The notes under the pieces: generated by a model
What the model was told of the DNA's origin: nothing
What the model saw: only the letters and a program-made list of their open reading frames with translations
Database searches by the model: none
Assembly: GCA_038841535.1 (NCBI GenBank)
Contig: JAWBTQ010000005.1
Location: 27,242 to 91,241 of the forward strand
Origin: Sulfolobales archaeon
GTDB taxonomy: Archaea; Thermoproteota; Thermoprotei_A; Sulfolobales; NBVN01
DNA: 64,000 nt
Direction: 5' to 3'
Shown: one piece after another, positions 13,425 through 23,975 of the stretch
Layout of the letters: every line of letters starts with the position of its first letter
Numbering within the stretch: position 1 is the stretch's first letter
Program-made: the position numbers and the translations under genes

Positions 13425-13534
13425 GCGGGGGTGCCCGAGCCAGGTCAAAGGGGGCGGGCTCAAGACTCTTCCAGCACTACGAGTTGGAGACCCGCTGGCG
13501 CAGGCCTGCGTGGGTTCGAATCCCACCCCCCGCA
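13425..13534 (+). tRNA. tRNA-Leu(CAA) with 25-nt intron at 37/38 (13465-13489)
   Basis: Acceptor GCGGGGG/CCCCCGC-A; anticodon arm GCGGG-CT-CAA-G[intron]A-CCCGC; long variable arm; T arm GTGGG-TTCGAAT-CCCAC; upstream CTTAATA box. Confidence 0.93.
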
Positions 13535-15485: not shown

Positions 15486-15646
15486 ACCATCAAGACTGCA
15501 GAACTTACGAAGATTTTAAATAACCTACTCTAGTCTCCTCAGCCTAATTCAATAGTGCCGATGTACGCGTGATCGCTACTTTGTTTTGATTACTTTTTCT
15601 TTTACTGCTTTTATCTATATAGCCTAAGCTATACTCGGTTGAAGGG

Positions 15647-15799
15647 ATGGGTGGTTGGATACTTAGGTGTAGGTCTTGTGGAGCGAGCAGAGTACTCAAG
15701 GTAAGTTACCACTTAGGGGACTTTAAGCAACTATATCATTGGTGTCCAAACTGTAAAAGAAACACTCTCCACGATATCATAGAGAGAATAGCGCCATAA
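15647..15799 (+). CDS. Small zinc-ribbon protein (50 aa, below the ORF-track cutoff)
   Basis: MGGWILRCRSCGASRVLKVSYHLGDFKQLYHWCPNCKRNTLHDIIERIAP*; two CxxC pairs; TTTATCTATA box upstream; divergent from fen. Confidence 0.75.
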   Translation: MGGWILRCRSCGASRVLKVSYHLGDFKQLYHWCPNCKRNTLHDIIERIAP

Positions 15800-16237
15800 G
15801 TTATAAAGCGTAAGAACTCCCATTTGTAGAAGCTACTATAGAGCTTTCATCCAAAATCCTCACCTCCAGGTGCGGAAGAGAGGGGCGAAGTTATAGACTT
15901 GCCTGTAGAACGCTTACTCGATGAAGAGTTCGAGCGCATTAGCGACTTAGAAGCACTTATTGAGCTGACGCACTTTAAGTGTAGTGCGTATCTCTGCCTA
16001 CGCTGAGTAGGGTAGTGATAGAGATCTCAAGGCTAAGCAAAGAGCCGAACCAGCTTTAGTTAGAAATACAACATTCAACCTCTCCTCAGGAAAGCTCTAT
16101 TTTTGAGGCAGATGCAGTTAGGGCCAAGCACCCCCACTGGAGACGCACAAACGGATCTCCGTTTCTTCTGAAGCACTCCGTAAAAGAGTTCTTGGGCAGA
16201 GCAATACTTTAAAACTCGAGAGGAACTTGAACTAGCT

Positions 16238-16296
16238 GTGGAGGGCGGCGGCCGAGGTCCAAAGCCCCGCATCCTTGGCCGCTAGACGACCCGGCT
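16238..16296 (-). tRNA. 5' half of tRNA-Gln(UUG) with GC-rich trailer; candidate split tRNA
   Basis: Minus strand AGCCGGG-TC-GTCTAGCGGCCAAGGAT-G-CGGGG-CT-TTG-G (16296-16259), then ACCTCGGCCGCCGCCCTCCAC; no T arm or 3' acceptor strand follows. Confidence 0.8.
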
Positions 16297-16316
16297 TCCA
16301 CTAGCTTTTAGTATTT

Positions 16317-16332
16317 GAGGTAAATAAGTTTT
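16317..16332 (-). promoter_or_regulatory. BRE/TATA promoter of the tRNA-Gln half
   Basis: Minus strand AAAACTTATTTACC about 25 nt upstream of the tRNA 5' end. Confidence 0.65.
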
Positions 16333-16507
16333 GCCAGCCACGCCGACCTAGAGTTTAACAAGAGAGTAGACTCTAGAGAGACTACACTACTACATGCTTA
16401 AGCTCTCTTACTACGTTATAAGGACTTACGTGCCAGCGGTAAGTTTAGTATCGAAGTTCGTGTAGCTATATGGAGTGCGATATATGTGCTGTCTAAGTTA
16501 TGTTCTC

Positions 16508-23722: not shown

Positions 23723-23787
23723 CCTTAGGTAATCACCGCATCACGCTTTTTAAAATATTTAAGAGTAGTTGATATCAAGTTCTTGGC

Positions 23788-23872
23788 GCCGGGGTGCCCG
23801 AGCGGTCTAAGGGGCCGGCCTGGAGAGCCGGTGGGCTAACCGCCCACGCGGGTTCGAATCCCGCCCCCGGCG
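23788..23872 (+). tRNA. tRNA-Ser(GGA)
   Basis: GCCGGGG/CCCCGGC-G acceptor; CCGGC-CT-GGA-GA-GCCGG anticodon arm; long variable arm; GCGGG-TTCGAAT-CCCGC T arm. Confidence 0.96.
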
Positions 23873-23975
23873 TCACTCCCATGCGTAGTGATGGTTTATA
23901 AGTCATTGTTTCACACCGCTCCCATACACCATGAAACGATTTAATAATGTTGCTATATGATAATACTAGGAGATA

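Follow-up and report, generated by a model that had tools for sequence, protein, structure and literature searches.

How tRNA-Gln(UUG) is made in an archaeon whose assembly contains no contiguous gene for it is the question raised by a locus in a 64,000-nt contig stretch of a Sulfolobales archaeon, where the 5' part of a tRNA-Gln is followed by a GC-rich sequence in place of the rest of the tRNA. The window, i.e. the whole stretch analysed, corresponds to G000:C5:27242-91241, G000 being the assembly that holds it (1.56 Mb, 40 contigs, 83.8% complete). The element is very probably the 5' half-gene of a trans-spliced (split) tRNA-Gln(UUG), whose 3' half-gene lies on another contig of the same assembly. 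Split tRNA genes are rare, and much of the argument over whether two halves came first in tRNA evolution, or whole tRNAs were divided at a late stage, turns on them; standard tRNA finders report genomes of this kind as devoid of tRNA-Gln.

A first-pass annotation, made from the letters alone, had described an undegraded tRNA-Gln(UUG) 5' half running to G37, with a TATA box above it and a GC-rich sequence instead of a T arm. All three were confirmed on the minus strand, and the features of the half-gene were as follows:

16259..16296, minus strand: tRNA-Gln(UUG) 5' exon, 38 nt, with the acceptor 5' strand, the D arm, the 5' strand of the anticodon stem and the loop to G37, assigned by identity to intact genes of relatives; nucleotide 1 is the A of AGCCGGG at 16296 and G37 lies at 16259.
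16260..16262, minus strand: anticodon UUG (nucleotides 34-36) in the loop C32 U33 U34 U35 G36 G37, read from the sequence and called as ttg by ARAGORN after in-silico joining.
16240..16258, minus strand: GC-rich trailer ACCTCGGCCGCCGCCCTCC, 19 nt, in place of the rest of the tRNA and pairing with the leader of the 3' half; no T arm follows it. Its parts, delimited by the duplex and by compensatory changes, are an A (third base of the 5' bulge), a C (pairing with leader position -7), the clamp CTCGGCCGCC, an unpaired G and CCCTCC.
16321..16328, minus strand: TATA-like box CTTATTTA at -32 to -25 from tRNA nucleotide 1, the putative promoter of the half-gene, at an octamer position conserved in the genus.
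16329..16335, minus strand: A-rich stretch directly upstream of the TATA-like box, a candidate resembling a B recognition element; in most congeners a similar A-rich stretch lies before the box.
16211..16214, minus strand: TTTT run 45 nt after G37, a possible but weak archaeal terminator of the 5'-half transcript, read from the sequence.

The 38-nt exon agreed letter for letter with the 5' portion of the tRNA-Gln genes of many relatives, which excludes chance. No tRNA was reported at the site by ARAGORN with default settings, by Rfam at the gathering score or by Rfam at E values up to 10; the permissive Rfam search gave only sub-threshold, chance-level matches nearby (UCA1, 18.6 bits; sR43, C/D-box-like, 15.4 bits, E 0.41, at 16108-16157 on the plus strand). 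A bacterial promoter and terminator scan, uninformative for an archaeon, returned no promoter and one unrelated hairpin.

The first-pass annotation was correct that the window holds no 3' half. The exact complement of the trailer, which it had proposed as a search pattern, occurred nowhere else in the genome, even with one mismatch; what led to the partner was a pattern search for a T loop with CCCGGCT, the complement of AGCCGGG in the acceptor stem, behind it. This combination had a single match in the assembly (G000:C3:136133-136156), and reading of the context delimited the half-gene around it:

G000:C3:136070-136077: TATA-like box CTTATAAG, 19 nt before the leader, read from the sequence.
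G000:C3:136097-136160: 3' half-gene, from the leader to CCA.
G000:C3:136097-136122: leader GGGGGGTAGGCGGCCGAGCGGGAGAT, 26 nt, complementary to the trailer.
G000:C3:136123-136160: 3' exon, read from the sequence, with C38, CCCCG (39-43), TGAC, the T arm, CCCGGCT, A73 and CCA.

The trans-spliced tRNA-Gln suggested by the first-pass annotation was therefore supported by a single matching 3' half with a complementary GC-rich leader and its own TATA-like box. Among the tRNAs of the whole assembly (43 with Rfam; 44 with ARAGORN, introns allowed), none was a tRNA-Gln.

The trailer and the leader were complementary over two segments. The trailer clamp CTCGGCCGCC pairs with GGCGGCCGAG of the leader over 10 bp; beyond it, an unpaired trailer G lies opposite UA, followed by CCCTCC paired with GGGGGG over 6 bp, including one G-U pair. 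Since the leader clamp is interrupted by these two bases, the pairing amounts to 10 bp plus 6 bp. In G000 the trailer:leader duplex reached -39.0 kcal/mol, a value attained by 6 of 1000 shuffled leaders (mean = -27.5 kcal/mol; sd = 3.8). The same calculation was made for all 18 pairs of 5' and 3' halves available in the genus (10 UUG and 8 CUG pairs from 10 genomes, i.e. G000 and nine congeners out of the sample of 40 relatives compared), and gave -31.4 to -44.9 kcal/mol in 18/18.

The junction could be folded as a bulge-helix-bulge (BHB). With the A behind G37 taken as i1 and the trailer positions counted onwards from it, and with leader positions numbered -1, -2 and so on backwards from C38, the central 4-bp helix is formed by leader GGAG (-6 to -3) and U35, U34, U33 and C32. 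The 3-nt 3' bulge consists of A(-2), U(-1) and C38, beside the anticodon stem, while the 5' bulge consists of G36, G37 and the trailer A; the outer helix opens with a pair between the trailer C (i2) and G(-7), next to which comes a bulged C(-8) and then the clamp. This geometry was kept in 18/18 pairs, with a central helix of C-G, U-A, U/C-G and U-G, a C:G pair at i2:-7, a C at leader position -8 and a 3' bulge of A(U/A)|C. When the junction was cofolded without constraints, the 4-bp helix was recovered, as were the anticodon stem and the 3-nt 3' bulge. In a BHB, cleavage by the archaeal splicing endonuclease takes place after the second base of each bulge, which here would be at G37|A and U|C38.

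Joined in silico, the exons of G000 gave a 76-nt RNA that ARAGORN called as tRNA-Gln(ttg), and a tRNA-Gln call was likewise obtained for the joined product of all 18 pairs. Nucleotides 1-73 of the G000 product were identical (73/73) to the intronless tRNA-Gln(UUG) in six of eight outgroup loci, and matched at 72/73 in the other two. The first-pass annotation had left the split point ambiguous, between 37/38 and a site after position 43. The former stands and the latter does not: the split point is 37/38, not 43/44, because the 3' half has its own C38 and CCCCG (39-43) and because the joined product matches the intronless genes over 73/73 positions. The trailer CCUCG is clamp, and not nucleotides 39-43.

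The same split arrangement was present in 9/9 congeners. Each possessed one 3' half with a leader and a TATA box, and a UUG 5' half in the same neighbourhood as in G000, between the genes for FEN-1 and a carbamoyltransferase. Eight of the nine also had a second 5' half elsewhere, with the anticodon CUG, that uses the single 3' half; the leader base opposite position 34 is a G, which pairs with U34 or C34, so that one 3' half can serve both isoacceptors. The halves lay on other contigs or tens of kb apart. TATA-like octamers of the form (C/T)TT(A/T)T(A/T)(A/T)N started at -32 to -34 in 18/18 genus 5' halves, with spacers of variable sequence, and TATA-like octamers were found at -27 to -32 before the clamp in 10/10 genus 3' halves, pointing to a promoter of its own for each half. 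No contiguous tRNA-Gln gene was detected in G000 or in the nine congeners, a result bounded by the completeness of the genus assemblies (79-97%, one of the congeners being 97% complete).

The clamp also changed on both of its sides. A G:C pair became A:U in G008 (both halves) and in G009 (UUG half), the CUG half of G009 keeping its G as a G:U intermediate; a C:G pair became U:A in G001 and G006 (both halves in each); and the helix was longer by one pair, on both sides, in G003 and G004. In one congener (G005:C2; L035, ~39.7 kb, and L098, ~15.7 kb), the UUG and CUG 5' halves had an identical 39-nt upstream region that included the TATA box, and different trailers and downstream flanks; this common region looks like gene conversion or duplication between half-genes.

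These comparisons bear on the possibility that the locus is a dead tRNA fragment, i.e. a pseudogene or an attachment-site remnant, with a functional tRNA-Gln(UUG) gene lying intact in the unassembled 16% of the genome. The completeness of G000 leaves room for such a gene, and integration sites with pieces of tRNA genes have been described for this order (Chan et al. 2011, PMC3218864). A remnant, however, needs no complementary partner beside the only matching 3' half, and in 10/10 genus genomes the exon, the promoter box and the clamp were kept, the latter with compensatory changes relative to the leader, while an intact tRNA-Gln was found in 0/10, including the 97%-complete one. The 5' half in G000 is flanked by FEN-1, a small open reading frame (ORF) without Pfam match and the carbamoyltransferase; no integrase or other mobile genes were found flanking either half in this assembly, and the 5' half does not show the arrangement of an attachment site, namely duplication of an intact tRNA with an integrase or mobile element adjoining. 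The first-pass annotation had named the lack of a complementary 3' half, together with an intact tRNA-Gln(UUG), as the sign of a dead fragment, and the opposite was found. A dead fragment is accordingly held to be highly improbable.

The first-pass annotation had also raised a possible misassembly at about 16255, so that the exon would be joined to an unrelated GC-rich sequence. The stretch was contained in sequencing runs amounting to 13 rows from seven studies, labelled as hot springs metagenome; nine of these rows are possible sources of the DNA. The contigs broke inside the exon in three DNA runs, no record bridged 16255-16259 with 31 letters on each side, and the depth rose from ~5-9 to 55-458 over the exon, all of which might be taken for the traces of a chimera. 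Such breaks are expected, because the 38-nt word is common to many organisms: a loose end at 16254 continued into an intron-bearing tRNA-Gln of another organism, and a loose end at 16259 in the DNA run X11 into an intronless gene of another organism. Moreover, contigs of 2779 nt (X10) and 1744 nt (X11) spanned 15900 through the trailer to 16284, the same exon-trailer junction was present in 9/9 congeneric assemblies, and the trailers co-varied with their own leaders, leaving a chimera barely credible. The nearest named public records were metagenome-assembled genomes (MAGs) labelled as Sulfolobales, Desulfurococcales or Thermoproteota archaeon.

In the split-gene pathway proposed here, the 5' half would be transcribed from its own TATA promoter as nucleotides 1-37 plus the GC-rich trailer, and the separate gene on C3 would supply the 26-nt leader, nucleotides 38-73 and CCA. 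The two RNAs would anneal through the trailer:leader clamp (10 bp, the interruption, 6 bp), the 7-bp acceptor stem and the 5-bp anticodon stem, and the junction would fold into the BHB. The splicing endonuclease would then cut after G37 and before C38, and RtcB would ligate the exons. G000 encoded two tRNA_int_endo homologues (100.2 and 42.5 bits), one catalytic-like and the other structural-like, and an RtcB (579.7 bits); the presence of two homologues suggests an endonuclease of the broad-specificity subunit type. The two endonuclease genes map to the regions C3:149393-149650 and C14:30090-30323, and the RtcB gene to C1:212415-213719.

Alternatively, the half RNA might act alone and never be spliced, either as a regulatory RNA resembling a tRNA half or as part of a two-piece, unligated tRNA. 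By means of CCUCG the 5' transcript is able to form a closed anticodon stem by itself, as the first-pass annotation pointed out, and the joined RNA was not seen among the contigs of one RNA-library run. This self-closing stem was, in turn, poorly kept in congeners with trailers starting ACCCTC or ACTCTC; the BHB geometry in 18/18 pairs and the exact 73/73 reconstitution of tRNA-Gln argue for cleavage and ligation, and the cell needs a decoder of CAA, for which no other gene was seen in the assembly. A stand-alone function is thus considered very unlikely.

Several observations weigh against a trans-spliced tRNA-Gln(UUG) at this locus. With z = -3.1, the shuffle control is moderately strong at best, since good binding is expected of any two GC-rich sequences. 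The bulged C after the first outer-helix pair makes the context of the 5' splice site slightly irregular, and the minimum-free-energy fold favours a G37:C(-8) pair over the canonical 3-nt 5' bulge, so that the 5' site appears somewhat relaxed. The terminator is not conserved, a T run of at least four within 120 nt being found after only 7/18 genus 5' halves. The sole RNA-library run (X13) gave contigs only, and the exon is common to other organisms of the community. Among these contigs, one of 38 nt equalled the exon and ended at branch points, because other organisms share the exon, and another of 2213 nt contained a 5' half and had a loose end resembling the flank of a congener's CUG half. 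With G000 about 84% complete, an intact gene may lie in its missing part, as far as this genome alone is concerned. Finally, a search of G000 that allowed up to six substitutions did not find the CUG 5' half, and neither blastn nor tblastx found there the gene that adjoins this half in congeners; the missing CUG half fits the incompleteness of the assembly, without proving it.

Where the split came from is suggested by sister genera within the family, in which tRNA-Gln is an ordinary gene interrupted at 37/38 by an intron of 15-21 nt. This intron aligned with the leader at 94-96% in G011 and G022, and the cis-spliced tRNA-Gln genes of G011, G022, G010, G019 and others had the same exons and the same intron position as the split gene, with intron ends that align with the trailer and the leader. 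They differ from it in being one gene and one transcript with a 15-21-nt hairpin intron. Fixation throughout an uncultured hot-spring genus, in which every contiguous tRNA-Gln gene is missing as far as found, the cis-intron homologues in sister genera and the covariation between loci on different contigs provide strong comparative evidence that the tRNA was split late, from an intron. In G000 the 3' half has a GlmS-like gene on one side and a DUF1512 gene on the other, and Pus10 is encoded further downstream. As a DUF1512 homologue adjoins an intact tRNA-Gln(CUG) gene in G012, G023 and G018, the 3' half seems to occupy the locus of the old CUG gene, the 5' halves lying elsewhere.

The distribution of such loci was wider than the genus. 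With each species represented by a single genome, a scan for the 5' exon plus a following A, which leaves aside intronless genes, returned 91 loci: 49 had a cis intron, 27 were orphan 5' halves with at least 300 nt seen downstream, 8 had the 3' part on the same strand at a distance of 159-1955 nt downstream, and 7 were cut by the end of the locus. The orphan 5' halves with other clamps belonged to records labelled Fervidicoccaceae, Thermodiscus, Desulfurococcales or Sulfolobales. Several other families also had this tRNA broken at the identical position, two of the genomes concerned being single contigs. One of them (G034) possessed UUG and CUG 5' halves and one 3' half at least 46 kb apart, with a purine/pyrimidine clamp; the other (G032) possessed a split CUG gene and an intact UUG gene. 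In addition, G039 combined a CUG 5' half with a 3' half bearing a complementary leader, G029 had the same 3' half with leader as G039 and no 5' half that could be found, and the halves of G038 were ~150 nt apart. From the differences among the clamps and the homology of the cis introns, it seems that the tRNA was split at one position several times independently. In G032, the 3' half with its leader lay directly after another complete tRNA gene (G032:C1, ~665.7 kb, L089) and could be co-transcribed with it rather than having its own promoter.

The relatives with halves on one strand, 159-1955 nt apart, would also be compatible with one very long cis intron and a single transcription unit holding both halves in G000. 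This has next to no probability, given that the two halves of G000 are on different contigs (C5 and C3), that ~43 kb of contig downstream of the 5' half contained no 3' half, that the halves of the single-contig genome G034 are so far apart, and that each half has a TATA box. Trans-splicing of two separately encoded halves remains by far the better account.

In some relatives, the space between the halves contained a gene that hints at the origin of the split. In G020, from another genus of the same family, the UUG halves were ~715 nt apart with a perfect 20-bp clamp, and between them, on the opposite strand, lay an intact 196-aa ORF with two LAGLIDADG motifs (L211 226-816; C22:10575-11165), matching Pfam LAGLIDADG_3 at 29.2 bits (cut-off 22.5). 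A homologue with 36% identity and two stops was located between the CUG halves of G040 (L105 366-941), and G030, a congener of G040, had a 37-nt hairpin intron at the corresponding site. Homologues also followed the 5' half in three loci of named MAGs (L133, L145 and L195), and the ORF was antisense to the tRNA in all five distinct cases. Its close homologues occurred only at these tRNA-Gln sites among the 41 genomes, the other matches being weak and inside very long open frames.

Based on these loci, it is tentatively possible that tRNA-Gln in this order is a hotspot for a mobile 37/38 BHB intron carrying an antisense LAGLIDADG gene with its own promoter. Such a cassette would break the transcription unit, its hairpin arms would become trailer and leader, and splits would be seeded repeatedly; the genus would represent the end state, in which the endonuclease was lost, the halves were dispersed and the 3' half at the old CUG locus came to serve two isoacceptors. 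For the genus itself, an origin through a homing endonuclease is put forward as a hypothesis: no homing-endonuclease gene was found in 10/10 genus genomes, tblastn gave no match better than E = 0.9 in G000, and a decayed copy, sought by tblastn in the ~750 nt downstream of the 5' half, did not come to light. According to PMC6125680, archaeal BHB introns in general can carry homing-endonuclease genes, and our literature search found no report of one in an archaeal tRNA intron. If true, the mobile-intron reading would explain how split tRNAs arose, a matter of long debate, by a mobile-element mechanism that is concrete and can be tested. The breaks at the same position in other families and the homing-endonuclease gene between halves imply that split tRNA-Gln may be far commoner than the literature shows, and that the splits may be due to a mobile element.

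According to the review by Fujishima and Kanai (2014, PMC4033280), seven genomes contain 29 trans-spliced tRNA genes for 12 anticodons between them, and the split tRNAs that Chan, Cozen and Lowe (2011, PMC3218864) give for Desulfurococcales are only Asp(GUC) and Lys(CUU). The table in the latter paper has split Gln(UUG) only in Nanoarchaeum equitans, in agreement with the first-pass annotation, which knew of split Gln from Nanoarchaeum alone. Our literature search, later papers included, likewise found no split tRNA-Gln outside Nanoarchaeum; supplements, subscription journals and GtRNAdb lay outside its scope and could list one. The N. equitans gene concerns the same isoacceptor and has two separately encoded halves, but is split at 32/33 and not at 37/38 (PMC3218864), which indicates an independent event with a different junction.

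The closest architectural match was the split tRNA-Glu(UUC)/(CUC) of N. equitans, with two 5' halves differing at the first anticodon base, one common 3' half (both rows of PMC3218864 give the same 3'-half coordinate), a split at 37/38 and GC-rich complementary flanks. It differs in amino acid, in phylum and in belonging to a reduced symbiont genome, and no homology of the flanks is implied. The Asp(GUC) genes of Aeropyrum pernix and Thermosphaera aggregans, split at 37/38, and the Lys(CUU) gene of Staphylothermus come from the same broad order (Desulfurococcales per NCBI records) and are interpreted as recent splits of intron-bearing genes (PMC3218864). As described there, a single tRNA is split per genome and its halves are neighbours or separated by a few kb, whereas the tRNA-Gln halves studied here are on different contigs, a single 3' half has to serve two isoacceptors in the congeners, and the arrangement is fixed throughout the genus. 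Caldivirga maquilingensis (Fujishima et al. 2009, as cited in PMC4033280) is, by comparison, a free-living crenarchaeon with pieces common to isoacceptors and a leader pairing that forms a relaxed BHB; it differs in the tRNAs concerned ('Gln' is absent from the main text of PMC4033280) and in having three-piece genes, of which there are none here. Overall, this split tRNA-Gln belongs to a known kind of gene, and is notable as fixed in a genus, dispersed, common to isoacceptors and recurrent as a pattern.

Other features were observed around the two halves. Downstream of the 5' half, ~750 nt of the window (15486-16240) contained no long ORF, and a small ORF at 15647-15799 on the plus strand was conserved at the protein level in congeners. 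The window also contained an intron-bearing tRNA at 13425-13534 on the plus strand (Rfam, 43.4 bits), missed by default ARAGORN and called as tRNA-Leu(CAA) with a 25-nt intron when introns were allowed, and a tRNA-Ser(GGA) at 23787-23874 on the plus strand. On the contig of the 3' half, the weakest of the 43 Rfam tRNA matches (G000:C3:20917-20990; 35.3 bits; ARAGORN Thr CGT) may be a pseudogene. An identical 14-nt insertion near the start of the anticodon stem was present in two tRNA genes of that contig (G000:C3:13174-13263 and C3:63346-63471), of which one is a tRNA-Lys(CUU), and the other has a second, long intron and was called Ser by ARAGORN though its loop reads CCA. The insertion site is close to 30/31, the position at which the Staphylothermus tRNA-Lys(CUU) is split (Chan et al. 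2011, PMC3218864).

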